The translations under genes were made by a program, and so were the position numbers. A stretch of DNA of 64,000 bases. Origin: Candidatus Eiseniibacteriota bacterium (GTDB taxonomy: Bacteria > Eisenbacteria > RBG-16-71-46). Numbering within the stretch: position 1 is the stretch's first letter; each line of letters opens with the position of its first letter. Under the pieces are notes generated by a model. It searched no databases, was not told the DNA's origin, and was given only the letters and a program-made list of their open reading frames with translations. This document shows positions 7,121 through 57,581 of this stretch, in pieces. The DNA is taken from the NCBI GenBank assembly GCA_038231135.1, contig JBBRLX010000020.1:9548-73547 (forward strand). The letters run 5' to 3'.

Positions 7121-8587
7121 ATGACCCGTCCCGACCTCGACGCGCCCGGCAGAGTCCGGGCGCGTGCGGCCCGTTCGCCGCGCGCGCCCGAACGGCCGGG
7201 CGTCATTCGCTGCAGCGCCGTGGCCGCGCTGCTGATCGCCATCCACGGGATCGACTCCTGGGCGGCGGGCTTGCCGCGTGATTCCGGCGCGGGCACGCCG
7301 GCCGATTCCGCTGCGACTGCACCCGCGAGCACGGGTGCGGTGCCGTTCGACTCGCTCACCGTCGAACGCGCGATCGAGCTGGCACGTGCCCATGCACCCG
7401 ACGTGCTGACGGCCGCGGCGCTCCACGGTGCCGCCCGGTTCGATTCGATGGCGGCGGGATTCAACCGACGGGCGGCGCTGTCGGTGGCCGGGGGCGCCAC
7501 CGTCGCCCCTCACGGGTTCTACGATCCGGTGATCACGAACCTCGGCGACTACGATCTCAAGCTGGTCGCGGAGCTTCCGGTGCTGGATGGCGGCGCCCGC
7601 GCCCGCGAGCGCGCCCGGGCGGCGCTGGGCGTGACGTCCGCGGCGGCCGACCTGGCGGCGGCGCGCCGCGACGCCGGGCAGCGCGCCGCGCTGGTGGCGC
7701 TCGACGAATTGCGCCAGCAGGACAACGAGCGCGCGCAGTCGGCCGCGCTCGAGTGGATCGACCGGCTCGCGAGCATCGTCGCGTCGGCGGTGCGGGCCGG
7801 CGCGCGGGGCCAGGCGGACGCCATGCGCGTGACACTCGAGCGATCCAACGTCGAGCTCGCACTGCTGACCACGCGGCAGACGCGCGCGGCGCTGGCCCGG
7901 GAACTGGTGGAGTTGACGGGCAGCCCGGGTCCGGTGGCGGTGCGCACACCGGCGCCCGCGGCGGACACGCCGCCGGTGGCCGCGGATTCGACGCGCCTGA
8001 TCGAACGGCTCGCGGCGTCCCCGGCCGTGCGGCAGGCCGAAGCCGAGGCGGCGCTCCAGCGCGTGGCCCTCGACGAGTCGCGGCGCCGGAATGCGATTCA
8101 GCTCGGGCTCACCGCCGACGCGGGCCTCGCCGGATCCGATCTGACCGCGGCCGTTCCCGAGGATTTTCGGGTCACCCATCCCGGCGCCACGTTCGCGGAC
8201 CGGCTGCGCCGCGATCTCGGCGCGTCCGCGGCCGTGCGGTTCAAGCAGCCGTTGCTCGACCGTTCCGTCCCCGCGGCCGTCGCCGCCCGCCGCGACGCGC
8301 TGCGGGCCGCGCTGCTGCGCCGCGACGCGGCGATGGCGCGCGGCGTCCGCGAGGCGCAGGATCGGCTCGATGCCTGGCGCACGGCCGCCCGGCGCACGCG
8401 CGCCGCGGCGATCGCCGCGGCGCAGGCGCAGGAGAACCTGCTGCGGCTGCGATCGCTGTACGCGGGCGGCGGCACCGGGCTGCTCGATCTGCTCGACGCC
8501 CGCCGCCGCCTGGACGACGCGTTCGAGCAACTGGGATCGGCGAGCTTCGATGCGCGTGTGGCGCACTACCAGGCGGAGATCCCGTGA
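7121..8587 (+). CDS. TolC-family outer-membrane efflux channel
   Basis: LT.E.AI.LA, P.LDGG, coiled-coil Ala/Arg helices and Y..G....LDLLDA motif; immediately upstream of MFP and RND genes. Start uncertain. Confidence 0.8.
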   Translation: MTRPDLDAPGRVRARAARSPRAPERPGVIRCSAVAALLIAIHGIDSWAAGLPRDSGAGTPADSAATAPASTGAVPFDSLTVERAIELARAHAPDVLTAAALHGAARFDSMAAGFNRRAALSVAGGATVAPHGFYDPVITNLGDYDLKLVAELPVLDGGARARERARAALGVTSAAADLAAARRDAGQRAALVALDELRQQDNERAQSAALEWIDRLASIVASAVRAGARGQADAMRVTLERSNVELALLTTRQTRAALARELVELTGSPGPVAVRTPAPAADTPPVAADSTRLIERLAASPAVRQAEAEAALQRVALDESRRRNAIQLGLTADAGLAGSDLTAAVPEDFRVTHPGATFADRLRRDLGASAAVRFKQPLLDRSVPAAVAARRDALRAALLRRDAAMARGVREAQDRLDAWRTAARRTRAAAIAAAQAQENLLRLRSLYAGGGTGLLDLLDARRRLDDAFEQLGSASFDARVAHYQAEIP

Positions 8588-39767: not shown

Positions 39768-40426
39768 GCGACGCAGCCGTCGACGATCGTCACCGTGCGC
39801 CCCGCGCCCGACACCGCTTCGCGCTCGTGGGTCACGACCACGATCGTCTTGCCGTCCGCGGCCAGCTCGGCGAACAGCCGGAAGATCGCGGCGCTCGTCG
39901 CCGAGTCGAGGTTGCCGGTCGGCTCGTCGGCGAGGATGAGCGGCGGGTCGTTGGCCAGCGCCCGCGCGATCGCGACTCGCTGCTGCTGGCCGCCCGACAG
40001 CGCCGACGGCAGCTTGGCCGCCTGTTCGGGCACGCCGACCCGTTCGAGCAGCGTGCGTGCACGCGCCGCGCGCTCGCGACCCGGAATCGTGCCGCAGAAG
40101 TCCATCGGCAGCAGCACGTTCTCGAGCACGGTCAGGGTGGGCAGCAGCTGGAAGAACTGGAATACGATCCCCACGTTGCGCCCGCGCCAGGCCGCGAGGC
40201 GGTCGTGGGACAGGCCCTGGATCGGCGTGCCGCCGATCGTCACGGTGCCCCGCGACGGCCGGTCGATGCCGGCGAGCATGTTCAGCAACGTGGACTTGCC
40301 ACTGCCCGATTTGCCGACGATGGCGGCGAACTCGCCGGCTGTGATGTCGAGATCGATGCCGCGGAGCGCCGCGAACGGCCCCGCGGGGTTGTCGTAGGTC
40401 TTGGTGACGTTCTCGAGTCGGATCAT
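39764..40426 (-). CDS. LolD/MacB-type ABC ATP-binding protein
   Basis: GKSGSGKST, LSGGQQQR, LADEPTGNLD. Confidence 0.93.
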   Translation of the reverse strand: MIRLENVTKTYDNPAGPFAALRGIDLDITAGEFAAIVGKSGSGKSTLLNMLAGIDRPSRGTVTIGGTPIQGLSHDRLAAWRGRNVGIVFQFFQLLPTLTVLENVLLPMDFCGTIPGRERAARARTLLERVGVPEQAAKLPSALSGGQQQRVAIARALANDPPLILADEPTGNLDSATSAAIFRLFAELAADGKTIVVVTHEREAVSGAGRTVTIVDGCVA

Positions 40427-40433
40427 GGCCAGC

Positions 40434-40507
40434 AGACTAGGCGCGTGCCCCTGAACCCGCTCTGAATGCACCGTTCATGTGCCGTTCAGCCGGGGTTGGG
40501 CCATACT
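40434..40507. promoter_or_regulatory. Back-to-back divergent promoters, each with a direct-repeat box
   Basis: Minus strand: ATTCAG-N5-GTTCAG (40451-40467), 11 nt, then TAGTCT. Plus strand: GTTCAT-N5-GTTCAG (40473-40489), 12 nt, then CATACT. Confidence 0.7.
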
Positions 40508-40528
40508 CGTGGCGATCGGGGAGGGCAC

Positions 40529-41191
40529 GTGCGCATTCTGGTGGTGGAGGACGAGCCGCTGCTGTCGCAACAGCTCGTGAGGGCGCTCGGCGACGCCGGC
40601 TACGCCGTGGATGCGGCGACCGACGGCGAACAGGCGGAGTTCCTGGCTCAGACCGAGCGGTTCGATGCCGTGATCCTCGATCTCGGGCTGCCGAAGCTCG
40701 ACGGGCTCACGGTGCTGAGGCGCTGGCGGGAGGCGGGACTCGCCATGCCGGTGCTGGTGCTCACGGCACGCGACAGCTGGCACGAGAAGGTGCAGGGCAT
40801 CGACGGCGGCGCCGACGATTACGTCGCGAAGCCGTTCCGCATGGAGGAGCTGCTGGCGAGGCTGCGCGCGCTGCTCCGGCGCGCGAGCGGACAGCTCACG
40901 CCGGAGCTGCGGGCGGGGGCGCTGGCACTCGATCCGCGCGCGGCGCGCGTCACGCTCGACGGCGTCGCGGTGAAGCTCACGAGCCACGAGTTCCGCGTGC
41001 TCTCGTACCTGCTCCATCATCGCGGCCGCGTGGTGTCGCAGTCCGAGCTGACGGAGCACATCTACTCGCAACCGTTCGACCGCGATTCGAACACCGTCGA
41101 AGTGTTCATCGCCCGGCTGCGGCGCAAGCTCGGGGCGGGCACGATCGAGACCGTGCGTGGCCTCGGCTACCGGATCGGGGCGGAACCGTGA
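40529..41191 (+). CDS. OmpR-family response regulator (PhoP/FeuP/QseB-like)
   Basis: GTG start after GGGGAGGG; DLGLP..DG, LTAR..W..KV.G.D.GADDY and DSN..EVF..RLR.KL. Confidence 0.94.
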   Translation: MRILVVEDEPLLSQQLVRALGDAGYAVDAATDGEQAEFLAQTERFDAVILDLGLPKLDGLTVLRRWREAGLAMPVLVLTARDSWHEKVQGIDGGADDYVAKPFRMEELLARLRALLRRASGQLTPELRAGALALDPRAARVTLDGVAVKLTSHEFRVLSYLLHHRGRVVSQSELTEHIYSQPFDRDSNTVEVFIARLRRKLGAGTIETVRGLGYRIGAEP

Positions 41192-42168
41192 ACGTCCTGC
41201 GGTCGCTGCGCTCGCGCGTGCTGGTGGGCTCGCTGCTATGGACTCTCGGTCTGCTCGCCGCCACACATCTGCTGTGGGTCGCCCTGGCGGGGCGGTATCC
41301 GATGGTGTTGCACATGGGCCACGGCGGGGTCGTGTACGTCGCGCTGGCATTCATGGCTGCCGGGCTGCTCGGGTTGCAGAGCGGCCTGACGCCGTTCCGG
41401 GAGCTGAGCAGGCGCCTCGCCGCGGTGCGGGCGGGCCGCGAGCGCCGGCTCGACGGGCGCTATCCGAACGAAGTGCAGCCGCTGGTGACCGAACTCAACG
41501 CGCTGCTCGAACAGCGCGATCAGGCGGTGCTGCGCGCGCTCGCCCGGGCAGGCGATCTCGCGCACGGCCTCAAGACCCCGCTCGCGGTGCTCTACCACGA
41601 GGCGGACCAGGTCGAAGCGGCGGGTCATCACGACCTCGCCACGGTGATCCGGCAGCAGGTCGAGCGCATGCGCCGGCAGGCCGACTATCATCTCGTCATG
41701 GCCCGCGCCGCGAGTTCGGGGGCGTCGCCGGCGTCGCGGTCCCAGGTGCTCGAGTCGGTGGACGGGCTCGTGCGGACGCTGTCACGGTTGCATGCCGGAC
41801 GCGGCCTCCAGGTGCTGGTGAACGTGCCGCCGGGTCATGTCGTGCGGGGCTCGCGCGAGGACCTGGACGAGCTGCTCGGCAATCTGCTCGACAACGCGTT
41901 CAAGTGGGCCGCGTCGCGCATCACCGTCGCCTCGGCGGAGCACGGCTCGAACGTGGCGATCACCGTGGACGACGACGGCGCGGGCATCGATCCGTCGCAG
42001 TGGGAACGGGTGCTCCAGCGCGGCGTGCGTGCCGACGAAGCCGCCGCCGGCTCCGGGTTCGGGCTCGCGATCGTGCGGGAGCTGGCCGAGCTGCGCGGCG
42101 GCTCGATCGAAATCAGCCGCGCTCCCGACGGCGGCGTGCGTGCCCGGCTGGAGCTGCCGGCGGCCTAG
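41188..42168 (+). CDS. PhoQ/FeuQ-like sensor histidine kinase with almost no periplasmic domain
   Basis: Two closely spaced TM helices; P.EV.PL..ELN.LL, DLAH.LKTPL, GNLLDNA.KWA and GSG.GL. Confidence 0.92.
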   Translation: MNVLRSLRSRVLVGSLLWTLGLLAATHLLWVALAGRYPMVLHMGHGGVVYVALAFMAAGLLGLQSGLTPFRELSRRLAAVRAGRERRLDGRYPNEVQPLVTELNALLEQRDQAVLRALARAGDLAHGLKTPLAVLYHEADQVEAAGHHDLATVIRQQVERMRRQADYHLVMARAASSGASPASRSQVLESVDGLVRTLSRLHAGRGLQVLVNVPPGHVVRGSREDLDELLGNLLDNAFKWAASRITVASAEHGSNVAITVDDDGAGIDPSQWERVLQRGVRADEAAAGSGFGLAIVRELAELRGGSIEISRAPDGGVRARLELPAA

Positions 42169-42246
42169 GCGCTCACCGGCTGCAGGGGTCCGCGGGCAGC
42201 GACGCGCACCGCCGCTCGACGCGTGCGACGGTGCGCGGCCCGCGTG

Positions 42247-44106
42247 CTACTGCAGCATGACGAACGAGCGGCGCAGGATTCCGCCGGAGGTCGACAGTCG
42301 CACGAAATACATGCCCGGCACGGCACCCGCGATGTCGAGCTGGCCCCGGTACTCACCGGCCTCGAGCGTGCCGTCCAGGTAGCTCTTCACGAGCCGGCCC
42401 GCGATGTCATAGACCCCGAGGCTCGCCGGGCCCGACCGCGGCAGGGAAAAGTGCAGGTTCAACGCGCCGCGGGTGGGATTGGGGCTCAGCGGCGCGAGCG
42501 CGAGCGCTCCCGGTGCCGGGATCCCGAACGCCGGATTATTGCTGCCCGGGGTGGGAGTCTGCTTCACGGCCTCATTGGTCGCCAGCAGCGTCCAGGCGCG
42601 CGATTCGTCATTGCGGGTCCCGGTCGCGGGGCACCCGGCACCGTCGACGCCCTGGGTGTTCAGGGTCTGGCCGGAGTCGGTGTAGTCCGTGAGCTTGCCG
42701 TTGACGGTGACGTGCACCACCGGCTGGGTCGACGACACCTCGCTCACGCACAACTTCGGATCGCAGCCATAGCAGCCCGCGGGACTGGTGTCGGACCCGT
42801 CGAAGTTCTCGAAGGCAGTCTGGGCGAGGATCAAAGTCCTGCCCGGGTCGATCGAGGTCGCGCTCCACAGCGCGAACTTCCTGGAGCCGATGGTGACGGT
42901 CACCGCCACTCCCGACAGCGTGCTCGAGCCGAGGTTGTCGATGCGGATGCAGCTCGAATCCCAGGCATCCGAGGTGCCGGCGTCGGGCCTGCCGACGAAC
43001 GTCACGTTGGACGCGCCCAGCCACGGACTGGGCTTGGGACGCGGGTGGCCGGGGTGGTGGGTGTCGTAGTAACCGGCGTACACCGCGACCGGGCCGACGG
43101 ACGAGGTCCCGGTGCCCAGCGTGATGTCCGCCGACACCGGCGCCGACGCGTTGCCGCCGGTGTCGGTTGCGATCAGCGTTACGGTATGGGTGCCCGAGCT
43201 CGCGTACGTGTGTGACGCGGAGGCGACGGGCGCGGTCGTCGTCACGGCGGCAGAGCCGTCGCCGAAGTCGAACCGGTAGGTCTTGATGGGCGTCGCGTCC
43301 ACGTCGGTCGACCCGGAGCCGTCGGCGATGACCGCCAGCGACGAGGCGCCGGGTTTCACGGTCAGCTTCGCCACGGGTGCCGCGTCGGCCGGCGTCTGCG
43401 TGGTGGTGTAGTCGACGTGAAGCAACGGCGCCTTCGACGACGACTGGTCATAGGACACCGCGGTGCGGTGCCCGGTGCCGTTCACGATGATCGCGAGGCC
43501 GTTGTTCGCGGCCCAGCCCGGGCGGCCGACGATCTCCTGGACGATCGCCTTCAGATCAGGGGTGCGCTGGGTTGCGGTCACGTCACCGGAACGCCAGCTG
43601 GATGGCTTCCAATTCACGGTGGCACTCGTGCGGGAGCGGCCCGAGACGTTCTTCGAGCTCGAGGTGAACGCCGGCGCGTTGTCGCTCGCCTGGCCGCGGA
43701 ACACGAGACTCGTCGCCTCGGTCTGCGATTCGGCCGCGAAGAACTGAATGTAGGCGCCGGTGATTACCGCGCCCTGGGGAATCCCCAGGTTCCGCCAGCG
43801 CATGCCGACGATCTGATCGCTGCTGTCGTGGATCAACTGGAGCCGGCTGCTCGTGAGGCTCATGGACCCGCTGGAGGACTGTTCCGCGTCGTCTGCTGAC
43901 GCCGCCACTCGCCGTTCGGTGGAGGTCCGGACCGCCGCCGATGCGAGCGGGGACGATGCGGCATCCGTGGCGCCCGACTGCGTGCCCGGCTCGGCGGCGG
44001 CCGTCGCGGGCGGGGTGACCGTGTTGATCAGGAAGCCAACAGCGAGGGGCGCGAGGGTGCGGAGGACGCGTCGCGGCACATGGGTGTCCTGAATGGAGCG
44101 GTTCAT
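42247..44106 (-). CDS. Secreted multidomain protein (beta-sandwich domain, PKD, unknown Cys-containing domain, C-terminal sorting-like domain)
   Basis: Signal peptide; DDAE..IPQGA.I..AYIQF..TPDL..IVQE domain; FDFGDG PKD; terminal PNP...YDI.GR...G.YF.RL. Confidence 0.75.
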   Translation of the reverse strand: MNRSIQDTHVPRRVLRTLAPLAVGFLINTVTPPATAAAEPGTQSGATDAASSPLASAAVRTSTERRVAASADDAEQSSSGSMSLTSSRLQLIHDSSDQIVGMRWRNLGIPQGAVITGAYIQFFAAESQTEATSLVFRGQASDNAPAFTSSSKNVSGRSRTSATVNWKPSSWRSGDVTATQRTPDLKAIVQEIVGRPGWAANNGLAIIVNGTGHRTAVSYDQSSSKAPLLHVDYTTTQTPADAAPVAKLTVKPGASSLAVIADGSGSTDVDATPIKTYRFDFGDGSAAVTTTAPVASASHTYASSGTHTVTLIATDTGGNASAPVSADITLGTGTSSVGPVAVYAGYYDTHHPGHPRPKPSPWLGASNVTFVGRPDAGTSDAWDSSCIRIDNLGSSTLSGVAVTVTIGSRKFALWSATSIDPGRTLILAQTAFENFDGSDTSPAGCYGCDPKLCVSEVSSTQPVVHVTVNGKLTDYTDSGQTLNTQGVDGAGCPATGTRNDESRAWTLLATNEAVKQTPTPGSNNPAFGIPAPGALALAPLSPNPTRGALNLHFSLPRSGPASLGVYDIAGRLVKSYLDGTLEAGEYRGQLDIAGAVPGMYFVRLSTSGGILRRSFVMLQ

Positions 44107-44325
44107 CGCGGCCCTTTGCTGGAATGAATTGCCCTGGGTGCGTAACGGGGGTGAACGATACGGGTCGGCCATCCGTGACCGGAGCTGCCTGACCCATCGC
44201 GCGTTCGTATCCTAACCGATCCTGAACGGGAATGTCAGGTTTTTTGCAATCCTTAGTCCGGGCGCAGGAACTGCCCTATTGTCACGGTGATCTCCGTTCA
44301 GTGCCGCACCTACCGGAGGAACCCC

Positions 44326-45387
44326 TTGTCCCTTCCCACCGAGCCGATCGGAAGCATCCCCCGACCGCTGTCGCTCGTCCGCGCGGTGGCCGACGCCGAC
44401 GCCATGAACCCGCGGTTCGAAGAGCTATACGAGGCCGCGATCCGCGACACGATCGAGCGGTTCGAGGCCACGGGCTCGCCGGTGATCTCGGACGGCGAAC
44501 AGCGCAAGTACCACAATTTCTGGACGTACTCCGTCCATGCCCTGCCGAACACCACGCCCGACGGCTTCAAGATCCCGTTCTCCGCGGGCCACACGCGGCG
44601 GATGCCGCGGCTCACGCGCGGCCCGTTTCGCTATGGCCGCACCGCCGATACCTATCTCGACGTGGCGCTGCGCTACGCGCACGTGCCCGTCAAGCAGGCG
44701 GTGATCTCGCCGTCCGCGTTGAGCCTGATGTATCCCGCGGAGGGCATCGCGGGCTACTCGCGGGAACAGTTCATCGAAGATCTGCTCCACGAACACGAGA
44801 CCGAGATCCGCCGCTGTCTTCAGAAGGGCGCGTACAAGGTGCAGGTCGACTTCACCGAGGGTCGCCTCGCCATGAAGATCGATCCCACCGGCCATCTGCT
44901 CAACAGTTTCATCGATCTCAACAACCTGGCGCTGTCCCGGTTCACGGCGGAGGAGCGTGAGCGCATCGGTGTTCATACGTGTCCCGGTGGCGACATCGAT
45001 TCCACGCACAGCGCGGACATCGACTATGCCGAGCTGCTGCCGAGCCTGTTCGAGCTCAAGGCCGGCAACTTCTATATCGCGCTCGCCGGCGAGCGGGATC
45101 GCAAGCATGCGCTGCGTCTCATTCGGGACCACATGAAACCGGATCAGCGGATGTTCGTCGGAGTCATTTCCCCGATCGACCCGCACGTCGAGACCCAGGA
45201 AGAGGTTCGGGATCGTACGCTCGAGGCGGCGGAATACATTCCGGTCGGCCGGCTCGGCACCACCGACGATTGCGGGTTCTCGCCGTTCAGCGACGACACG
45301 TCCACGAGCCGCGACACCGCGTTCGCCAAGATCCGCGCACGGGTGCTGGGTACGGCGCTCGCGGCCGAGGTGCTCGGGAGCCGGTGA
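44326..45387 (+). CDS. Cobalamin-independent methionine synthase II (core MetE-like) family protein
   Basis: TTG start after GGAGGA; IGS.PRP, SDGEQ, Q.D, HTC and DCGF motifs. Confidence 0.82.
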   Translation: MSLPTEPIGSIPRPLSLVRAVADADAMNPRFEELYEAAIRDTIERFEATGSPVISDGEQRKYHNFWTYSVHALPNTTPDGFKIPFSAGHTRRMPRLTRGPFRYGRTADTYLDVALRYAHVPVKQAVISPSALSLMYPAEGIAGYSREQFIEDLLHEHETEIRRCLQKGAYKVQVDFTEGRLAMKIDPTGHLLNSFIDLNNLALSRFTAEERERIGVHTCPGGDIDSTHSADIDYAELLPSLFELKAGNFYIALAGERDRKHALRLIRDHMKPDQRMFVGVISPIDPHVETQEEVRDRTLEAAEYIPVGRLGTTDDCGFSPFSDDTSTSRDTAFAKIRARVLGTALAAEVLGSR

Positions 45388-47111
45388 TGGAACGGGACGA
45401 TCGCGAGGAGGACCAGCTGCGGTCGGTGGCCATCCAGAATGCCAACAGCATCCTGGTGGCGCGGCAGCGCGCCGAACAGCAGTTGCTCGAAGCCAAGCAG
45501 GCGCTCGAGATCCGGACCGCGGAGCTGGCCCGCTCGCTGTCGATGATGCGCGCCACCCTCGAATCCACGACCGACGGAATCCTGGTCACCGATCAGGCCG
45601 GCGGGGTCACGAGTTTCAACGAGAACTACCTGAAGATGTGGGGCGTGTCGCGCGAGCTCGCGGAGGCCGGCCATCACGGCCTGGCTCAGGCGCAGGGCCG
45701 GCGCTTCCTCGAGCCCGCACCGTACTTCGCGAGGATCGCCCAGATCTACGAATCGGCGCTGTCCGAGAGCCACGACGTGCTGACGCTGTCGGACGGCCAG
45801 GTGATCGAGCGGTTCTCGAAGGTGCAGTTCGTCGAGCAGCGGGACGTCGGGCGCGTGTGGATCTTCCGGGACATCACCCAGAGCCGGCGGGCGGAGCAGG
45901 AGCGGCTCCGGCTCCTCGATCGCGAGCGGGCGGCCCGCGCGGACGCCGAGCGGGCGAGCGAGATGAAGGACGAGTTCCTCGCCACGCTGTCGCACGAGTT
46001 GCGGACGCCGCTGAGCGCGATCCTCGGCTGGTCGGTGGTGCTGCGCCAGAACATCGACGACGACAAGATCCTGCACGGACTCGAGGCCATCGAGCGCAGC
46101 GCCCGCATCCAGACCCAGCTCATCGAGGACCTGCTCGACATGAGCCGGATCACGGCGGGCACGATGCGGCTCGACGTGCAGCCTGCCGATCCCGCGCTGT
46201 TCATCGAGGCCGCGCTCGAAACGGTGCGGCCCGCCGCCGACGCCAAGGGCATCCGCCTCGACAAGCGCATCGACCCCGGAGCGGGGCCGATCTCGGGGGA
46301 TCCGGCGCGGCTGCAGCAGGTCATGTGGAACCTGTTGTCGAACGCGATCAAGTTCACGCCCCGCAACGGCCGGATCCAGGTGATCCTCGAACGCGTCAAC
46401 TCGCACATCGAGATCAGCGTCGCCGACACCGGCATCGGCATCGAACCTGACTTCCTGCCGCGGGTGTTCGACCGGTTCCGGCAGGCGGACGCCACCATCA
46501 CCCGCAGCTTTGGCGGGCTGGGACTCGGGCTCGCGATCGTGAAGAATCTGGTCGAGTTGCACGGGGGCACCGTGCGCGTGAGCAGCGGGGGCCAGGACCT
46601 GGGGACGACGTTCACGGTGCAGCTTCCGCTCGCCATCGTCCACCGCGACCTCTACGGCGACTCCCGGCGCCATCCAAGCACGCCCAAGGACGCCGCGCTC
46701 GGGTTCACGCCGGTGGATCTCGCGGGGTGCACCGTGCTCGTCGTGGACGATGAATCCGACGCCCGTAACCTGATGCGCGTCGTGCTCGAGGGCTGCGGCG
46801 CGCGCGTGATCTCGGCAGGCACGGCCGTGGAGGCGCTGGCGCGCCTCGAACACGAGACGCCCGATGTCCTCGTCAGCGACATCGGGATGCCCGCAATGGA
46901 CGGCTACGAGTTGATCCGGCGCGTGCGCGAGCTGGGGCATGAGCGCAACGCGAAGCTGCCCGCGATCGCGCTGACGGCGTTCGCCCGCACCGAGGACCGC
47001 ACGCGGGCGCTGCGCGCGGGATATCTGGTGCACATGGCAAAACCTGTCGAGCCGTCCGAGCTCGTCGCCACGATCGCGAACATCTTCCGCCGGCCGACGG
47101 GCGCGGCGTAG
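45387..47111 (+). CDS. Cytoplasmic hybrid histidine kinase (coiled coil, PAS, HisKA, HATPase, REC)
   Basis: TGATG overlap with the MetE-like gene; LES..DGILV.D PAS, SHELRTPL, NL.SNA.KFT, GLGLGL; REC with DD, D, T and K; no TM. Confidence 0.93.
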   Translation: MERDDREEDQLRSVAIQNANSILVARQRAEQQLLEAKQALEIRTAELARSLSMMRATLESTTDGILVTDQAGGVTSFNENYLKMWGVSRELAEAGHHGLAQAQGRRFLEPAPYFARIAQIYESALSESHDVLTLSDGQVIERFSKVQFVEQRDVGRVWIFRDITQSRRAEQERLRLLDRERAARADAERASEMKDEFLATLSHELRTPLSAILGWSVVLRQNIDDDKILHGLEAIERSARIQTQLIEDLLDMSRITAGTMRLDVQPADPALFIEAALETVRPAADAKGIRLDKRIDPGAGPISGDPARLQQVMWNLLSNAIKFTPRNGRIQVILERVNSHIEISVADTGIGIEPDFLPRVFDRFRQADATITRSFGGLGLGLAIVKNLVELHGGTVRVSSGGQDLGTTFTVQLPLAIVHRDLYGDSRRHPSTPKDAALGFTPVDLAGCTVLVVDDESDARNLMRVVLEGCGARVISAGTAVEALARLEHETPDVLVSDIGMPAMDGYELIRRVRELGHERNAKLPAIALTAFARTEDRTRALRAGYLVHMAKPVEPSELVATIANIFRRPTGAA

Positions 47112-47162
47112 CACGACGGGCTTGGGGCCGCGGTCCCGATACCGGGGGCCGGCGCGCCGCGC

Positions 47163-47202
47163 AAAAACACGAGGCTCCCTCCATTCGTGGAGGGAGCCTC
47201 GT
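47163..47202 (-). terminator. Rho-independent terminator of the cytochrome gene
   Basis: Perfect 15-bp stem ACGAGGCTCCCTCCA-TTCG-TGGAGGGAGCCTCGT with AAAAA on the left (U-tract on the minus strand). Confidence 0.85.
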
Positions 47203-47219
47203 CGTGCCCGCCCGGGTTC

Positions 47220-48002
47220 TCAGTGGTGGTGCATCTCGTCGAGCCGCTTCGCCGGGTTCGGATTGCGGGGTTCGAGCTTCATCGCCTTCTGGTACTCCAC
47301 GACCGCGTTCGTCGTGTCCCCCAGTGCGCGATAGGCCTCGCCCAGGCCGTCGTGCACCATCCCCGAGTCGGGGAACCGGTCCGCGTTCAGGCGGAACAGC
47401 ACGATCGCACCCTTGGGATCCTGCTTCTCGAGCGCGTGGTAGCCGGCGGCGTTCAGCGCCTGCTCCCGGAAGTCGTAGGCGCCCGAGTTCTCGTAGCGGG
47501 CCCGCAACGCCTGATAGCGGGCGACCGTGGAATCGGCTCCCAGCTTGTCGTAGGTCAGCGTCAGCTCGTCGCCGAGCGTGCGCGGGCGTGAGGTGCCGTG
47601 ATGGCAGGTGATGCATCCCACGGTCACGCGGTCGGGAACGTCGGGCAGGATCTGCTTCACCTGGTCGTTCACCGAGCCCACCATCTTCATCATGCCCCGC
47701 GCCACATCCTTCTTGGGGTTCTTGTCGGACGGAAAATCGAACGCGCTGAGCGGCTCGCCTTCCTTGCCCACGTGACAGAACTGGCAACGCACGCCGAGCG
47801 CCCCGGAGAAGCCGGACATGATCGAGCGCAGTTTCTGCTTGTCGGTATCCTTCGGCAGCACCTTGAGGTTCTTGGCCGTGTCGGGCCACGACCACGATTG
47901 CTGAGCCGCCGCGGGAGTGACCGGGGCGGCTCCGGGACCGCGCAACAACCCCACCACCAGCAACAACAGGAACACCACGAACGCCAGCGGACCACGTTTC
48001 AT
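47220..48002 (-). CDS. Dihaem c-type cytochrome (reaction-centre cytochrome subunit-like domain) with C-terminal TPR
   Basis: GAGGAG RBS; signal peptide; NLKVLP, M......LGV.CQFCH, AR.MM.M and V.CITCH; then TPR helices. Confidence 0.85.
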   Translation of the reverse strand: MKRGPLAFVVFLLLLVVGLLRGPGAAPVTPAAAQQSWSWPDTAKNLKVLPKDTDKQKLRSIMSGFSGALGVRCQFCHVGKEGEPLSAFDFPSDKNPKKDVARGMMKMVGSVNDQVKQILPDVPDRVTVGCITCHHGTSRPRTLGDELTLTYDKLGADSTVARYQALRARYENSGAYDFREQALNAAGYHALEKQDPKGAIVLFRLNADRFPDSGMVHDGLGEAYRALGDTTNAVVEYQKAMKLEPRNPNPAKRLDEMHHH

Positions 48003-48211
48003 CGAACGCTCCTCGAAGGTCACGGCAAATCCCGATTCGGCCCGGCCCCGAATCGGCCGCGCACAGCAACTGCATAACCCGAAATCGGGCGCGAGTCGAG
48101 GACGAAATGACGCAAGGGGTGCCGGGCGACGTGAACGGGGCCCGAAGTGAACCTGACTTCACATGCTGCTAGAATGTGCCGCCGCGTTCGAGTGCACTTG
48201 AGGAGACCTCC

Positions 48212-48784
48212 ATGCCCGCTCTCGGTGTCATCATCGCCAGCACACGCGAGGGCCGCGCGGGGCTGCCGGTCGCCGAGTGGTTTCTCGAGATCGCCCGCGG
48301 CCACGGGCGTTTCGACGTCCACACAATCGATCTCAAGCAGCTCGGCCTGCCGCTGCTCGAGGAACCGCACCATCCCCGGCTCGGCCGCTACCAGCAGGCG
48401 ACGACGCAGGCCTGGAGCGCGCGGGTGGCGGCGCTCGACGCGTTCGTGTTCGTGACGCCCGAGTACAACTACGGCTCGCCGCCGGCGCTGGTGAACGCGC
48501 TGGATCATCTGTCGGCGGAGTGGGCCTGCAAGGCGGCGGGATTCGTCAGCTATGGCGGCATCGCGGCCGGCACGCGGTCGGTGCAGATGACGAAGCAGAT
48601 CCTCACGACGCTCAAGATCGTCCCGATCGTGGAGGCGGTGAACATCCCGTTCATCGCCCGCCTGATCGACCCGGCCACGAACACGTTTCCTGGCAACGAG
48701 ATCCTCGAGAAGTCCGCCATCGTCATGCTCGACGAGCTGGTGCGGTGGACGGAGGCGCTGGCGGTGCTGCGAACGCCGCGCTAA
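48212..48784 (+). CDS. NAD(P)H-dependent FMN reductase
   Basis: GAGGAG RBS; STR.GR, D.FVFVTPEYN.G....L.NA.D and SYGG..G motifs. Confidence 0.92.
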   Translation: MPALGVIIASTREGRAGLPVAEWFLEIARGHGRFDVHTIDLKQLGLPLLEEPHHPRLGRYQQATTQAWSARVAALDAFVFVTPEYNYGSPPALVNALDHLSAEWACKAAGFVSYGGIAAGTRSVQMTKQILTTLKIVPIVEAVNIPFIARLIDPATNTFPGNEILEKSAIVMLDELVRWTEALAVLRTPR

Positions 48785-48905
48785 GGCGAGTCTGCAGCCG
48801 GCTCGGCCGTGGGAGTTCGGACGATTCCTTCCGGGATGAGCAACATCTTAATCTACCGTTCGCGCGGGTTGGCCAGCACTCTTCCAGGTCTTGCTGAGGT
48901 TTCGG

Positions 48906-49814
48906 ATGCCGCGATGGTGGGTTGGGGTTGCCCTTGTACTATGCACGTTGACCACCGTCCATGGGGCGTCCGCCTGCAGCCAGTGCATGTGCGGCACGCC
49001 GTTCCCCGCGGAGGTGCTGGGGGGTGTGGTGCCGGCGCAGTTCACGTACGGCCTCGAGGAGCGTTACCTCTCCAAGTCGAATGCCCTCGACGACGGGCCG
49101 GGCCAGGAACGGGAACGCGAGCATCGCGTCGCCGCGTTCGGAATGTGGCGTCCACTCGGCGCCGTCGCCCTGCTGGGCCGCGTGCCCTACAACGTGAAGC
49201 AGATCACTTCCCGCCCGGCGGGCGGGGCCCCGGACATCGAGACGTCGCGTGGCATCGGCGACGCCGAGTTGCTCGTGCTCGCAGGTATCTATCGCAGCTC
49301 CGGGAGCGCGCCCAGAGTCCTGGGGCTCGTGATCGGCGGCACGGTGCCTACCGGCTCGAATGACGTCCGGGCCGCCACGGGGACGCGGCTCGATTCACAC
49401 CTCCAGCCGGGCTCCGGCGCGTGGTCGGTCACGGCGGGTGTGAACTTCGCCGTCACCGGGGGGCGCGGGGTCTGGGACGCGAGCGCACTCGGACGCACGA
49501 GCGGCACCAGCTCCCACGGCTATCGCTATGGCGACGTGGTGCTCTACAACGCCGGCTTCACGTCGCACGCGTGGCGCGGCCTACAGTGGCTCGCCCAGCT
49601 CAACGGCCGCGCCGCGCGCCGCGACCGGCTCGAAAACGGCACGATCGGCGTGAACACCGGTGGCTCCGTCACGTATGCGTCGCCCGGGGTGCGCTGGCGC
49701 AGCGGTTTCGGTCTCACCGCCGAAGCGGCCCTGCAGGTGCCGGTGACGCAGTCATTGTTCGGCGACCAGACCGAACGCACGACCGGCAGGCTCACGCTGT
49801 CGATGACCCGTTGA
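48906..49814 (+). CDS. Putative outer-membrane beta-barrel with an N-terminal CxxCxC motif
   Basis: Signal peptide ending ASA, then CSQCMCG; G.GD, PTG, LQPGSG, Y.YGD and NTGG motifs. Start may be 48891. Confidence 0.65.
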   Translation: MPRWWVGVALVLCTLTTVHGASACSQCMCGTPFPAEVLGGVVPAQFTYGLEERYLSKSNALDDGPGQEREREHRVAAFGMWRPLGAVALLGRVPYNVKQITSRPAGGAPDIETSRGIGDAELLVLAGIYRSSGSAPRVLGLVIGGTVPTGSNDVRAATGTRLDSHLQPGSGAWSVTAGVNFAVTGGRGVWDASALGRTSGTSSHGYRYGDVVLYNAGFTSHAWRGLQWLAQLNGRAARRDRLENGTIGVNTGGSVTYASPGVRWRSGFGLTAEAALQVPVTQSLFGDQTERTTGRLTLSMTR

Positions 49815-49888
49815 CCTGGGTCGGCGCGGCGCCCGTGCCGGCCCTCGCAGCCGTTGACAGTGCCGGCGCGCCATGTGAGTTTCCCGCC

Positions 49889-51400
49889 GTGCGCGACTTC
49901 CTGACGGCGTTCGTTCTCGGCCTGTGTACGCTAGCGACCGCCTATGCCATGGAGCGGGCGGTGGCGCCGTTCTATGGCCAGGGCGCGTTCCTGCTCACCA
50001 CCACGCTCGTCGTGGCATTTCTCGCGATCGCCGCCGGGCTCGCACTGGGCGCCTTGCGTGCCGCCAGCCAGCGCCATGGAACGACCGCCGTGCCGTTGCT
50101 GGCGGCGATCGGCTGGACACTGCTGGCCGCCTGGCTGCGCACGCCGTTGTTGCAGGTACTCGGCGCCGCCGGGCTCAGACTGGCCACCGTGATTGCGGTC
50201 GTGGCATTCATCGGCGTGCCGGTGTCCGGGATCGCCTCGACGCTGGCGTATTCGACGGGACAGACGTCGGCGTCGCGACCCGGCGGCAGCGCGTGGTACG
50301 CGATCGCCTCCGCGCTGTCCGGCGCGGCGATCGGCGTGCCGCTCGTGATCTGGCTGTTGCTGCCGGGACTCGGCATCTCGGGAACGTTGATTCTCACCGC
50401 GGGCGTCGAGGGCCTCGTGGGATGCGTCATCCTCGGCGGCACCGGTAGCGCCGTGGCCCAGAGCGCCGCCGCGGTGCTCGTGGTGCTCGTCTCCGTGTTC
50501 TGTGCCGACGGCTCCCGGCACGATTCCAGGCGCGGCGTGATCGAGGCCCGCGAAGGCGCCGCGGCGCAATACCGGGTCGTGGAACGCGAGGACGGGCGCT
50601 TCCTCATCGCCGATGGCGGGATCCAGACCATGCTGTCCAAGGACACCGGCGAGCCGCTGTGGCGGCCGGCCGCCGCGCTCCGCATCGTGGACCTGTTCTT
50701 CGCCCATCCGGACTCGATGGTGGTGCTCGGCCTGCGCGGCGGCGCCGTCGCCAAGTACTTCGCACGCGAGGGCTGGCAGGTGACCGCGGTCGAGCCGGAT
50801 CCCGACGCGCTCGGCATCGCGTCACGCAGCCTGTCGTTCAGCGCCCGCGAGATCCCGACCCGGATCGACGACCTGCGCCAGTTCGTGCGAACGGATTCCG
50901 GCCGCCACCCGGTCGTGATCCTCGACGCCTTCGGCGCCAGCCCGTTTCCACGGCACCTCGTGACCCGCGAGTTCTTCGCCGAGGTGTCGCGCCGCGTGGC
51001 GACGAACGGCCTGTTCGCCACGGTCGTGGTGGCGCGAGGCTGGGACGATCCGCTGATCGCGTCGCTGGCAACTGAATTGCGCGAGAGGTTCCGATCCGTG
51101 GTCGCGCTCCCGACCAGCGAGCCCCCCAATACCGTGGGGTCGATCGTGCTGCTGGCGTCGAACCGCACGCTCGAGCTGCCCGAGGAACGCCTGCCGCAGC
51201 CGACGGACTACCTGATGAACCCGGAGGGCCTGTGGGGCGTGACGCAAATGAACCACGCCTGGCTCAATCGCTTCACGCCGCCCGCGGGGAGGGAGGAGTT
51301 CACCGACGATCGAAGCGGGATCGACCGGATCAGCGACGGCATCCTTTACGCGAGCCGCCTCGACGCGCATCAGACGTTCGCGGCCGGCGGGCTCTGGTGA
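49889..51400 (+). CDS. Fused membrane domain / spermidine-synthase-like SAM-fold protein
   Basis: About 7 TM helices, then LGL.GG, VE.DP, D.R.FV, I.LDAF and P.HL.TREF motifs. Confidence 0.75.
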   Translation: MRDFLTAFVLGLCTLATAYAMERAVAPFYGQGAFLLTTTLVVAFLAIAAGLALGALRAASQRHGTTAVPLLAAIGWTLLAAWLRTPLLQVLGAAGLRLATVIAVVAFIGVPVSGIASTLAYSTGQTSASRPGGSAWYAIASALSGAAIGVPLVIWLLLPGLGISGTLILTAGVEGLVGCVILGGTGSAVAQSAAAVLVVLVSVFCADGSRHDSRRGVIEAREGAAAQYRVVEREDGRFLIADGGIQTMLSKDTGEPLWRPAAALRIVDLFFAHPDSMVVLGLRGGAVAKYFAREGWQVTAVEPDPDALGIASRSLSFSAREIPTRIDDLRQFVRTDSGRHPVVILDAFGASPFPRHLVTREFFAEVSRRVATNGLFATVVVARGWDDPLIASLATELRERFRSVVALPTSEPPNTVGSIVLLASNRTLELPEERLPQPTDYLMNPEGLWGVTQMNHAWLNRFTPPAGREEFTDDRSGIDRISDGILYASRLDAHQTFAAGGLW

Positions 51401-51483
51401 TATGCCGCCGAAGGCAGGGTGTCTTCGGGTCCAGTAGCCAGCCGTGAATTCAAGAAGCGCTTCGACGCCCCTCACGCGGCGCG

Positions 51484-51813
51484 TCAGCGTCCCAGCGGCA
51501 CGATGTCGCCGGTCTCCTCGATTTCCACGGGATAGCCGTCGAGCCGCTTCGGCAGCACCGCGGTCAGCTCCGGCGTGCGCCGCTTTACCATGATCCGAAT
51601 GCACGGCCGGTGATCGCGCGTTTCGCCCTCGTAGACGCCGACGACGCCGGGGTGCTGCATGAGACCCGGCACATGGGCCGCGATCACCGCTGCGATGTCA
51701 CGCACGGGCGTCGTCTCCGGGGCGGGTTGGCGGGCGGGTGTCGCGGGCCGGCATCCCGCGCCCGAACCCGTCGCGATCAGGACGGCCAGCAGGAACCGGA
51801 GGGGACGCCGCAT
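51484..51813 (-). CDS. Small lipoprotein homologous to the pro-domain of the adjacent protease
   Basis: Lipobox-like GAGC; LM..PGVVGV..G......P..LDGYPV....TG.I.PL aligns by eye with the N-terminal region of 51910..53019. Confidence 0.8.
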   Translation of the reverse strand: MRRPLRFLLAVLIATGSGAGCRPATPARQPAPETTPVRDIAAVIAAHVPGLMQHPGVVGVYEGETRDHRPCIRIMVKRRTPELTAVLPKRLDGYPVEIEETGDIVPLGR

Positions 51814-51909
51814 GCATCGCAGCGTCGCACGTTCGCAGGTTCAGCTCCACCGGAAATGCGTCGAGGCGCCGGCGGGCTGCCGGCGCCTCGAACGCTGTAC
51901 CGCCAAACG

Positions 51910-53019
51910 TCAGTGGCCGACCATCGAGGCTCCGAGGAAGCTCAGGACCTGCCCGATCGGGTTCGCGATCGCGCTCGTCGAGCTGCCGGCGAACAGCAGG
52001 CCCACGGCGCGCGGATTCGTGGTGACGTCCTCGACCATCAAGGAGCCCGAGTCACCGCTGTTCAGGAACCGTGAGCCCTTGTTCTTGACCACGATCTGGC
52101 CCGTGAACGTCTTCGTGAACGCGCTGCCGCCGGCGCACTCGTTCTCGTACGCCACACTGACCGTGGCGTTGAGTCCGCTGATGCTGCTGCGCGACAGGCC
52201 GGTCGTACGGCCGCTCTTCTTCACGGCCTGGCCGATCGACGCCCCCACGGTGCTCGCGCTGATCGTTCCGACATCGAGGATCGAGCCGTCGGTGCGCACC
52301 ATGCCCGAGATCACCGAGGCGATCGCGCAATCGACGTTCGAACCCGGCAGGCTCTTGATGCCCGACAGGCTGGCGACGTTCTGTGCGCTGGTCGCGGTGC
52401 AGCCCACGTCGATCAGCCCCGGCTGCACGACCGGATCGCCGGCCTTGGCCACGCGACCGTTGCCGCCGCTCACGATGTCGGCTTCGAACACGTGATAGTT
52501 GCTCAGCACGTACTGGGTGCCGCCCTTGGATACCAGCGAACCCAGCGTGCCGCCGCAGCAGTAGCCGTTGGCGAGGTCGTAGCGCCAGCCACCCGAGGTG
52601 CCGAGCTGGATCGGGGCCGTCTGCTTGGCCTTGTGGTCCGCCATCGCGACGATCTTGCCCGTCACTTCCTCGACGACCGGCTGGCCTTCGATCATCGCCG
52701 GCAGCCGGCCGGCGCCGAGAGCGCGCTCCGTGAGCACCAGCACCGCGGGACGGCCGCTGGCATCGAGGCCGACCGCGGTGCCGATCACGTTCGGGATCGA
52801 CATCAGCGAGCGGGTGTTGCGCTCCTGGATCTGGATGAGGCGCTGCACCTGCGGGTTCCGCAGGCTGAGACCGGTCTCGGCGGGGTTGTTCTGCGACAGG
52901 CCGCTGACCGGAGCGAGCGGGCTCTGTTGAGTGCTGCATCCGATGAGGGCGACGGTGGCGATGCTGGTTGCGGCGAGAGCGACGAGCCACAGTGTTCGGG
53001 AACGGGGGACATTCCGCAT
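51910..53019 (-). CDS. Lipoprotein trypsin-like (S1) serine protease with an N-terminal pro-domain
   Basis: GGAGG RBS; lipobox LIGC; GTLG, SN.HV (His), VDCAIA (Asp), KSGRTTG and GDSGS (Ser). Confidence 0.88.
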   Translation of the reverse strand: MRNVPRSRTLWLVALAATSIATVALIGCSTQQSPLAPVSGLSQNNPAETGLSLRNPQVQRLIQIQERNTRSLMSIPNVIGTAVGLDASGRPAVLVLTERALGAGRLPAMIEGQPVVEEVTGKIVAMADHKAKQTAPIQLGTSGGWRYDLANGYCCGGTLGSLVSKGGTQYVLSNYHVFEADIVSGGNGRVAKAGDPVVQPGLIDVGCTATSAQNVASLSGIKSLPGSNVDCAIASVISGMVRTDGSILDVGTISASTVGASIGQAVKKSGRTTGLSRSSISGLNATVSVAYENECAGGSAFTKTFTGQIVVKNKGSRFLNSGDSGSLMVEDVTTNPRAVGLLFAGSSTSAIANPIGQVLSFLGASMVGH

Positions 53020-53320
53020 GGTTCGATCCTCCATCTTATGAGGGGAAACGTGGGGTGGCTCCGCTCGCAGGCCAGGAGCCTGATGCGAAACTGACAGAAG
53101 ACAAGACGGAGTCAAGCACTATTCGGCATTGCCTGCCTTCGACCCCGGCGCACCATGACGGCCGGCACGCTTTCGAGGCTGCGTTCCGCCGCTGAACGAC
53201 TCACAATTATATGGATCGGCGGCAATTGACCTCTGCTAGGCTCCCCCCAGCAGGAACCCCCACCGGAGTCTGCCGCAGGCTCCACCATCCAACACCGGTC
53301 CTGTTTCGTTGGAGTCGATC

Positions 53321-54829: not shown

Positions 54830-57205
54830 TCAAGCCGCCGCCGCGTGGGGTGGTGACTCGGACTCCGTGCCTGCAGCGGGCTTCACCGGGAGTCGCCCGC
54901 TCAGCACGTCCGTCAGGTCGGAGGTGCGGACCGGCTTCGTGAGGTAGGCGTCCATGCCGGCTTCGATGCAGCGCTCCCGATCGCCGCTCATCGCGTGGGC
55001 CGTCAACGCCACGATGAACACGTGCCGGTCGGTGCCGGCTTCCCGGGCGCGGATGAGCGCCGTCGCCTCGAAGCCGTCGAGCACCGGCATCTGCACGTCC
55101 ATGAGAATGACGTCGAACGAGTGTTCGACAAGGATGTCGAGCGCGGCCTGCCCGTCGAATGCCATCGTCACCCGGTGTCCGTAATTGGTCAGCATCCGCG
55201 AGGCGATCGTGCGATTCACCGGGTTGTCCTCGACCAGCAGCACGTCGAGCACCGCGCGATCGTGCCGTAGCGTATGGCGGGTGACGATCGCGGGCGCCTC
55301 CAGCGAGGTCGAGGCGTCCCGTTCCGCCAGCACGCGGCGCAGCGTCTCGAGCAGGTCGGCCTGGGCCGCGGGCTTCATGAGGTACGCCGCCACGCCGATC
55401 GACCGGCACCGCGCGACGTCGCCGCGCTGTCCGCCCGAGGTCAGCATGATCAGCACGCAGGACGCGAGATCCGGGGTCGCCTTGATCCGCTCCGCCACCG
55501 TGAACCCGTCCATTTCCGGCATGTGACAGTCGAGGATCACCGCGTCGAACGGGACCCCGGCGACGTGTGACCGCCGCATGGCGTCCAGCGCCTCCCGGCC
55601 GGTGGATACGGTGGTCACGACGATTCGGCAGTAGGCGAGGGTATCCGCGATGATCCGCCGGTTCGTGGGATGGTCGTCGACCACGAGGATCCGCTTACCC
55701 GCAAGGCCCTCTGCCGCGAGCATGGCCGGAGCCGCACTCTGGAGAACGGCCGTGAGCCGGATGGAGAACGAGAACGTGCTGCCTTCGCCGGCCTGGCTCA
55801 TTACCTCGAGCGTCCCGCCCATCATTCCGACCAGCTGGCGGGAGATCGACAGCCCGAGCCCGGTGCCGCCGAACTTGCGGGTCGTGGAGCCGTCCGCCTG
55901 GCTGAACGCATCGAAGATCGCGCGCTGCTGCTCGGCGGTAATCCCCACGCCGGTGTCGCGCACCGCGAAGTGCAGGGTGATCTCCGGCCAGTCGACGGCG
56001 GCGCTCGTCACCGTCAGCACGACCTCGCCGCGCTCCGTGAACTTGATCGCGTTGCCGAGCAGGTTGATGAGCACCTGCCGGATGCGGGTCGCGTCGCCGA
56101 CGACCAGGTCGGGAATGGCCGGGTCGATCTCGTAGTTGAGCTCGATCTGATGCTGCAGCGCCTGGTTCGCGACTGCGCGGATCGTCTGCTGCATCATGTC
56201 CCGCAGCTGGAATTCGAACGGATCCAGCTCCAGCCGTCCGACTTCGATCTTGGAGAAGTCCAGGATGTCGTTGATGACCGTCAGCAGGTTCTCAGCCGAG
56301 CCGCGGATGGTGCGCGCGCAGTCCAGTTGGTCCTCGGTCAGTTCGGAGTCGAGCAGCACCTCGGTCATCCCGAGCACGCCGTTCATCGGGGTGCGGATCT
56401 CGTGGCTCATGTTCGCGAGGAACTCCGACTTCATGCGCGAGCCGGCGAGCGCCTGTTCGCGGGCGAGGGTCAGTTCGGACGTGCGCTGCTGGACACGGTC
56501 TTCGAGGCTCTGGTTCGTCGCCTCCACGTCGGCACGCTCGCAGGCCATCGACCGCGTGGCCGCGAGGCTGCGCCGGATCGACACGAACAGAAACGAGTCC
56601 TCGAAGATCACATAACCGGCGTGCTCGATCGCCCGCCAGGGCGATGCGACCAGCACGCCGTACACCGACTGCGGCCAGTACATGCCACCCAGCACGTGAT
56701 CGAGCGTGACGACGGTGGAGGCGGTGACCAGCACGCGCCAGTCCCGGTAGAACGCCAGCAGCGCGAGCGAGCCGAAGATGTGAAAGTGCGTCTCGACGCG
56801 GCCACCCGTCAGGTGGATCAGCAGCATCGAGGTCAGCATCTGACCGGCCGCGATGACATGGCGCGTCAGGCCGCGCCCGGGCTGCAGCACCGCGAGCAGC
56901 ACGGGCAGCGCCGTGACGATCCCGCCCAGGAACACGGCGGCGTAGACGTGCGCGTTCGTCTGGCTCTGAGCTCCGATCCACGTCCGTGGCGAGATCCACA
57001 GCGCAATGGCGATGCCGGCCAGCCACTGGCAGACCATGAGGACGGCGAACAGGCGGTCCGTCTTGCACGCGAGCTTCCATTGCTCGTCGAGGAACAACTC
57101 CCGGGTGCGGCGGGCGATGCCTAGGTCCTTGACCGGTGCCGCCTGCGGCGGCTCCATCACGAGCGCGGCGTCGGGTCCGGCGGCGGGCAGAGGAATCTCG
57201 GTCAT
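54830..57205 (-). CDS. Membrane hybrid histidine kinase with a His-rich multi-TM input and two receiver domains
   Basis: ATG 57205; about 6 TM helices; [25 protein letters not shown]; two REC domains with intact Asp, Thr and Lys. Confidence 0.93.
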
Positions 57206-57209
57206 GGTA

Positions 57210-57581
57210 TCACTCCGTCTTCCGGGACCATGCGAGCAGCACGGGCTCGAGGCGCGCGTATTCCGAGGCCAGCATCGCCTGCAGTTCCGCGACGCCGGCG
57301 GTGTCGCCCGCCCGCTGGCGAACCTCGAGCTCGCGGCATGCTGCGCCGAACGCGCCGGCGCCGAGTGCCAGGCCGCTGCCCTTGAGGGTGTGGGTGTGGC
57401 GCTGGATGGCCGTGGCATCGCCGGTTCGCACCGCTTCGGCCAATGCCGCGAGCAGCGGCCGGCACGCGGCGATGAAGTCCTCGATCACGTCACGACGGAA
57501 CGCGGGATCGCCGCCCGACACTTCGTCGAGCACGTCGGGGTCGTAGACCGACACGTCATCGAATCCTTCGGGCACGGGCAT
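57210..57581 (-). CDS. Stand-alone Hpt phosphotransfer protein
   Basis: D...L....GGD, HTLKGS...LGA......C..LE Hpt signature. Confidence 0.9.

Follow-up and report, generated by a model that had tools for sequence, protein, structure and literature searches.

A MetE-fold barrel protein encoded with a soluble hybrid histidine kinase, and its possible role as an input subunit that reads a homocysteine- or methionine-like ligand

In the window, the whole 64,000-nucleotide stretch of DNA analysed here, a gene for a MetE-like protein runs from a TTG start at 44326 to a TGA stop at 45387, and this stop overlaps the start of a histidine kinase gene, as the original prediction had read from the sequence (Table 1). 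The pair is flanked by genes for a PKD/sorting-tail protein and a cytochrome-c/TPR protein. Neither a methionine-pathway gene nor a SAM or B12 riboswitch had been recognised nearby, which agrees with these flanks and with an Rfam scan of window positions 40000-52000 that returned no riboswitch and only two chance miRNA matches. mesX (DUF1852), which accompanies mesD, was absent from the window flanks and was not recurrent among the 80 homologous loci described below. Promoter and terminator scans of the locus gave results at chance level. Three further regions of the window, all on the minus strand, are recorded here as separate observations: 47220-48023, convergent on the kinase, whose product combines TPR repeats with a stretch resembling reaction-centre cytochrome c; 51910-53115, encoding a lipoprotein-like product with a Nal1 C-terminal (trypsin-like) domain and adjoined by a small related ORF (51484-51813); and 54830-57418, encoding another hybrid kinase with two receiver domains and an N-terminal membrane region that Pfam leaves unnamed.

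Table 1 Features of the gene pair in window coordinates
Feature	Position	Strand	Basis
Ribosome-binding site GGAGG, 6 nt 5' of the TTG start	44315..44319	+	sequence
MetE-catalytic-barrel protein, 353 aa, proposed input subunit	44326..45387	+	PF01717, Foldseek, AlphaFold2 model
His217-x-Cys219, kept zinc ligands	44974..44982	+	alignment, homolog conservation
Ala252, where MetE has the fourth zinc ligand Glu	45079..45081	+	gapless alignment to 1YPX and 3RPD
Cys316, kept third zinc ligand	45271..45273	+	alignment
TGATG stop/start overlap	45385..45389	+	sequence; putative translational coupling
Soluble hybrid histidine kinase, 574 aa: helix/coiled coil - PAS - HisKA - HATPase_c - REC	45387..47111	+	Pfam, hydropathy
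Helix at the kinase N-terminus (residues 7-29), predicted to be the docking element	45405..45473	+	conserved across varied kinases; predicted interface
Intergenic hairpin separating kinase and convergent gene	47169..47202		terminator-like score on minus strand; frequency not above shuffles

PF01717 is the sole Pfam match of the upstream protein (E 4.7e-6), which at its length lacks the two-barrel architecture of MetE, with an N-terminal and a catalytic barrel in about 750 residues. The best of the curated methionine-synthase models in NCBIfam scored 49.8 bits against a cut-off of 406, and four more were also far under theirs. An AlphaFold2 model built from 89 sequences (pLDDT 90, pTM 0.90) has the catalytic-barrel fold of MetE and of the core methionine synthases MesA-D; Foldseek placed MesD (3RPD) at the top with a TM score of 0.78 (E 1.8e-16) and MetE next.

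Residues were mapped by profile alignment to 1YPX, 3RPD and T. maritima MetE; the last of these alignments is weak (E 8e-6), and the numbering offset of 32 was derived by hand from His618, Cys620, Glu642 and Cys704. On this mapping, S10, E58, D175, H217, C219, A252 and C316 of the barrel protein are equivalent to Ser411, Glu462, Asp577, His618, Cys620, Glu642 and Cys704 of T. maritima MetE, and D175 also to D599 of the E. coli enzyme. The HxC and DCG motifs that the original prediction had reported as kept do supply the His, Cys and Cys zinc ligands of MetE and MesA-D (H217, C219 and C316). The proposed loss of the fourth ligand, a Glu or Asp in those enzymes, was confirmed: Ala252, placed at a strand end in the barrel model, aligns with the zinc Glu of 1YPX and 3RPD without a gap, although HMMER opens one there for T. 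maritima MetE. The change of QIDEP to QVDFT was also seen as described, but its key Asp, D175, is retained, and since S10 and E58 are kept as well, the homocysteine-binding set of Ser, Glu/Gln and Asp is intact. The roles given to the zinc and homocysteine residues of MetE in the available text of PMC539065 and PMC7857596 match S10, E58, D175, H217 and C219. Two folate-site residues are replaced by alignment, Trp539 by L134 and Glu583 by L181. Position 252 is Ala in 118 of the 120 closest homologs and, across 131 coupled sequences, Ala in 126 and Ser in 5; in the same 131 sequences S10, E58, D175, H217 and C219 are invariant wherever aligned. Judged from these residues, the His-Cys-Cys site of the barrel is likely a zinc site. 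One or more zinc ligands are lost in four relatives (P0167, P0179, P0216 and P0241), which are possibly further non-enzymatic offshoots.

The protein encoded at 45387-47111 carries HisKA, HATPase_c and REC domains and is a hybrid histidine kinase; its PAS domain is PAS_7 in Pfam. It had been described as soluble, with a short helix leading through a coiled coil into a PAS domain, and this description holds: the highest 19-residue hydropathy, 1.48, falls inside a REC strand, and the kinase therefore has no membrane segment. The conserved helix, of about 25 residues, contains no Cys or His. Among 71 partner proteins it is followed by different PAS types, directly by GAF (L033, L049) or, without any sensor domain, by the kinase core itself (L029); the cores behind it include HisKA, HisKA_3 and HWE types.

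The family to which the barrel belongs is large, since all 8000 of 8000 candidates from the protein search scored as relatives, which puts the number of protein clusters at 8000 or more. Scanning GTDB genomes yielded 80 loci spanning, by record title, about ten phyla; these are the best 80 of 596 relatives found in the scanned part and are therefore biased to close relatives. Three run off their contigs, and in 72 of the 77 assessable loci of this best-80 set an HMM placed the helix kinase directly downstream of the barrel gene. The remaining five comprise one with a weak helix recognised by eye (L054), two Nitrosospira loci with the helix kinase upstream, and two without a kinase (L066, L073), whose near-full-length genes have altered C-termini. 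A barrel fragment without a kinase was seen at L215. With starts set by a simple rule, stop and start overlap by 1 or 4 nt in 53 of the 72 directly coupled loci. The reverse search, by the helix alone, gave 80 metagenome loci (the best 80 of 496), one of them without room upstream; a MetE-like sequence abuts the helix in 78 of the other 79, three of these being remnants or damaged copies, and the lone exception (L112) has an apparent transposase-like ORF upstream of the helix kinase. In a sample of 301 genomes the barrel gene occurred in 18 and the helix in 8, seven of the eight beside a full-length or near-full Ala-type gene and one beside a remnant; the 11 genomes with only a Gln type gave no helix HMM match, although in one of them (L179) a diverged helix had escaped the HMM. 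The gene pairing is far beyond chance, so that the conservation of the pair anticipated in the original prediction was found in both directions. By a crude filter, no third gene recurs beyond a few of the 80 GTDB loci.

Fusions of the two genes were also sought as evidence and set aside. Most of the 28 longer homologs have a scrambled junction of the kind that frameshift errors produce; in three (P0123, P0129 and P0149) the barrel C-terminus is in frame with the helix, and these are given little weight because they are single, unverified sequences. L045, which is still counted among the 72, was ruled out as a fusion because its assembly is frameshifted. As separate observations, two loci (L096, L110) hold a MetE-like remnant in which the start is joined to the last 44 residues and a zinc Cys is changed to Tyr, and which still overlaps the helix kinase, and one genome has, besides a full pair elsewhere, a second, degenerate helix kinase without a partner gene (L090, G005:C3:2408615-2411752).

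Database entries for relatives of the barrel are named methionine synthase, and in the atlas they appear as PF01717 clusters with automatic names only. Together with the MetE/MesD fold and the kept homocysteine residues, these names would suit a core (folate-independent) methionine synthase that the kinase controls or that simply shares a transcript with it. We consider this very improbable. The zinc Glu/Asp, conserved in MesA, MesB and MesD, is absent from the barrel, and the available text of PMC7857596 takes a Gly at that position to rule out zinc binding and to point to a different function. MetH scored above its cut-off in all six carrier genomes checked (the genome studied here and five of five others), and the barrel is therefore not needed for making methionine. 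Its spread is moreover patchy, with occurrences in 1 of 44 other genomes of the same family and in 7 of 401 and 2 of 251 genomes in two other phylum samples, and a helix private to the partner kinases would be left unexplained. On the features compared, the barrel is not a member of MetE or MesA-D (PMC7857596, PMC539065 and PMC7005905, in their available text; 3RPD, 1YPX): it shares their barrel and the His/Cys/Cys and Ser/Glu/Asp residues, but differs in its identity of about 19%, its Ala at the fourth ligand, its replaced folate residues, the lack of a MesX or corrinoid partner and its obligate kinase neighbour.

A FastTree phylogeny of 53 sequences, whose outgroup is too distant to root it and which is in effect unrooted, resolved three groups: the helix-coupled sequences, a Gln/Glu group with an internal support of 0.94 and, with a support of 1.0, a second Ala group. 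Members of the second Ala subclade (51-64% identity) are coupled in six of six cases to a kinase or diguanylate cyclase through a different, acidic helix. Four partners are hybrid kinases (L199, L200, L201 and L203, the first two being close kin) and two are GGDEF proteins (L202, L208), in keeping with the earlier suggestion that relatives might also precede diguanylate cyclases. A wider search for this subclade gave one of 251 genomes, the query's own. In Pseudoalteromonas piscicida (L208:1497-7092, NZ_CP074588.1), mesX-mesD precedes the MetE-like gene and its GGDEF partner by about 1.45 kb; this is the sole locus seen with a link to methionine synthesis, and mesX is there accompanied by its own mesD.

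The Gln/Glu group is a stand-alone sister clade (L178-L190 and members on Streptomyces and Trichlorobacter plasmids; 54-68% identity) with the same invariant pocket, for which no described function was found. Position 252 is Gln or Glu in this clade, mostly Gln, and none of 15 loci of the group has a kinase, receiver or GGDEF gene (the flanks covered were 1.5 kb in 11 loci and 4-6 kb in 4). Unlike the coupled proteins, stand-alone members are one residue shorter after K61 and lack F81 and L201. The extra aromatic residue at position 62, within the segment aligned to Asp-Met-Val of MetE, is present in both coupled groups and in L179 and is absent in the stand-alone group. L179 has Gln252, yet it keeps F81, L201 and the aromatic residue and stands head-to-head with a hybrid kinase whose diverged helix leads straight into HisKA with no sensor domain between. 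Ala252 was thus too simple as a marker of coupling, and because the stand-alone clade is mostly Gln and this one Gln member lies beside a helix-like kinase, loss of the Glu is not in itself the mark of a sensor. Three plasmid loci are noted in passing: stand-alone members in Streptomyces lie among primase/DUF6009 mobile-element genes (L205, L209), the second of them without both zinc cysteines, and the Gln-type gene of Trichlorobacter lovleyi pGLOV01 (L206) lies upstream of 2-oxoacid:ferredoxin oxidoreductase and cobO genes. The genome studied here also encodes a second PF01717 protein (L083, G000:C40:26433-27563), 26% identical and with the zinc Glu kept, whose neighbours by eye are a phosphonate-binding-like and an OsmC-like gene.

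In the RsbQ-RsbP system the catalytic residues are needed and enzyme turnover switches the partner. The barrel might likewise be a still active zinc thiol enzyme whose turnover, through a bound intermediate or product, switches the kinase. Neither the coupled nor the stand-alone clades vary anywhere in the pocket, and since it is equally conserved in the latter, where H89, R91, E178, R180, H228 and D323 are also invariant in an enzyme-like manner, the chemistry may persist; on sequence grounds, catalysis may be kept in the barrel. Relatives extend as far as Dictyostelium, Rhizoctonia, an acanthocephalan record, Pelagibacteraceae and an archaeon, a spread to be expected of a metabolic enzyme. 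The Glu of MetE is on the side away from the substrate, and the zinc moves off this residue on binding (PMC539065, available text), so that its loss need not stop the chemistry. However, no fixed ligand-receiving domain follows the helix, which disfavours a diffusible product read by PAS; no MesX or corrinoid methyl-donor partner is a conserved neighbour among the 80 loci; and the helix offers no Cys or His to modify. On balance, we regard control of the kinase by turnover as unlikely, though well short of negligible.

The barrel (a 107-row alignment) was co-folded 1:1 with kinase residues 1-50 (53 rows), the kinases themselves being dimers. As the original prediction had proposed, the barrel docked on the N-terminal helix, with an ipSAE of 0.73 against 0.02 for the best of three controls; in calibration, 116 of 157 solved pairs reached the ipSAE mark, as did 2 of 215 mismatched ones, and these figures are only rough guides to runs with our own alignments. 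The runs share at least 96% of contacts, and partner pLDDT is at least 82. Kinase residues 7-29, the conserved helix, are predicted to contact barrel residues 81-82, 133-140, 146-154 and 182-204, in a groove formed by helices 129-135, 146-166, 178-185 and 190-203 and hairpin residues 81-82. The closest predicted contacts (146, 150, 194, 197, 198 and 201) are on helices of the barrel that adjoin the folate site, outside the site itself. Five of the 24 predicted interface positions (F81, I150, L154, S194 and L201) are among the 22 that set the helix-coupled clade apart (p 0.011 by Fisher's test, for kin that are not independent), whereas overall conservation is not enriched in the interface relative to the rest (15 of 24, p 0.28). 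No similar complex was found among solved structures by sequence or by fold. The co-fold model and the clade-specific interface positions together support binding of the helix by the barrel.

A His-Cys-Cys site without the Glu should be more exposed, and MetE is a known target of oxidative stress (PMC521173) with an oxidised disulfide form (PMC539065), according to the available text of both. The site might therefore sense oxidants or zinc occupancy rather than a metabolite, with oxidation or zinc loss reshaping the barrel and freeing or locking the helix. We judge this improbable: the invariant S10, E58 and D175, which bind amino and carboxyl groups, are left unexplained, and no redox or zinc-uptake gene is a conserved neighbour among the 80 loci.

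The arrangement resembles RsbQ-RsbP and RsbT-RsbU of Bacillus subtilis, in which a separately encoded partner acts on the N-terminal region and coiled-coil linker of a soluble signalling protein, as is proposed here, and in which RsbQ, like the barrel, has an enzyme fold (PMC12143880, available text). According to the same text, modules of this type are shared among phosphatases, histidine kinases and GGDEF proteins across phyla; here too the partner gene is conserved beside a soluble signalling protein and is exchangeable among output domains. The partner, however, is a MetE zinc barrel rather than an alpha/beta hydrolase (RsbQ) or GHKL kinase (RsbT), the predicted dock is a bare 25-residue helix rather than a PAS or RsbU_N domain, and no PPM phosphatase output was seen in the loci examined. 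By analogy, the pair would work as the RsbQ/RsbT systems do, and it is not a member of them. From sequence and model together, it is likely a case of partner-controlled signalling with a new input fold.

The original inference that the barrel is an input subunit docked on the kinase helix is supported by the two-way gene coupling, the absence of the Glu, the helix co-fold and MetH in the genome. We think it quite probable that the barrel is a physical partner that regulates the kinase. That it is a separate input subunit, a predicted helix binder that reads a homocysteine- or methionine-like ligand at the likely His-Cys-Cys zinc site, seems to us somewhat better than an even chance; that the ligand is of this kind and is bound with no need of turnover, we rate as evenly balanced. 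It counts against this reading that no methionine gene is a conserved neighbour among the 80 loci. In MetE, homocysteine reaches the zinc opposite the Glu, draws the Asp-Met-Val segment in and re-orients Trp539 (PMC539065, available text). By weak alignment, these relay elements fall in the clade-specific segment 60-64 and at L134; L134 is part of the predicted interface, as are the hairpin and the helix that follows D175. As L134 lies in that interface, the barrel would re-use the homocysteine-to-folate-site relay, and from sequence and by analogy we infer a ligand-to-helix relay of the following form. Ligand binding would move the segment after E58, the MetE Asp-Met-Val region; the shift would pass through L134, aligned to Trp539, to the docked helix; and the pushed helix would alter the following coiled coil and so set the activity of the kinase or, in the second subclade, also of a diguanylate cyclase. 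Absence of the competing Glu would favour the thiolate-bound state, as would suit a sensor. More tentatively, and with somewhat less than even confidence, this branch of the MetE fold may be a detachable homocysteine/methionine receptor in which the MetE relay is re-used to grip a portable helix plug, with two plug helices in two subclades, so that any kinase or diguanylate cyclase could read the methyl cycle.

In summary, the pair is real, widespread and apparently undescribed in print: no paper on it was found in the literature searched, whose scope excluded subscription journals and bioRxiv supplements, and the available part of a 2025 review of two-component systems (PMC12471899) makes no mention of methionine. 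The label of methionine synthase is attached to at least 8000 protein clusters and is likely wrong for the coupled ones, which affects metabolic reconstructions of soil bacteria. Cultured carriers exist in Sorangium, Massilia and Caenimonas and, with the GGDEF form, in Pseudoalteromonas. The helix of 25 residues could serve as a portable tag for engineered sensors. Many soluble hybrid kinases of Acidobacteriota, Myxococcota, Planctomycetota, Verrucomicrobiota and Pseudomonadota are orphans for which the module would provide an input. If the proposal is true, it would sense sulfur amino acids or the state of the methyl cycle in the cytoplasm and connect them to two-component and c-di-GMP signalling.
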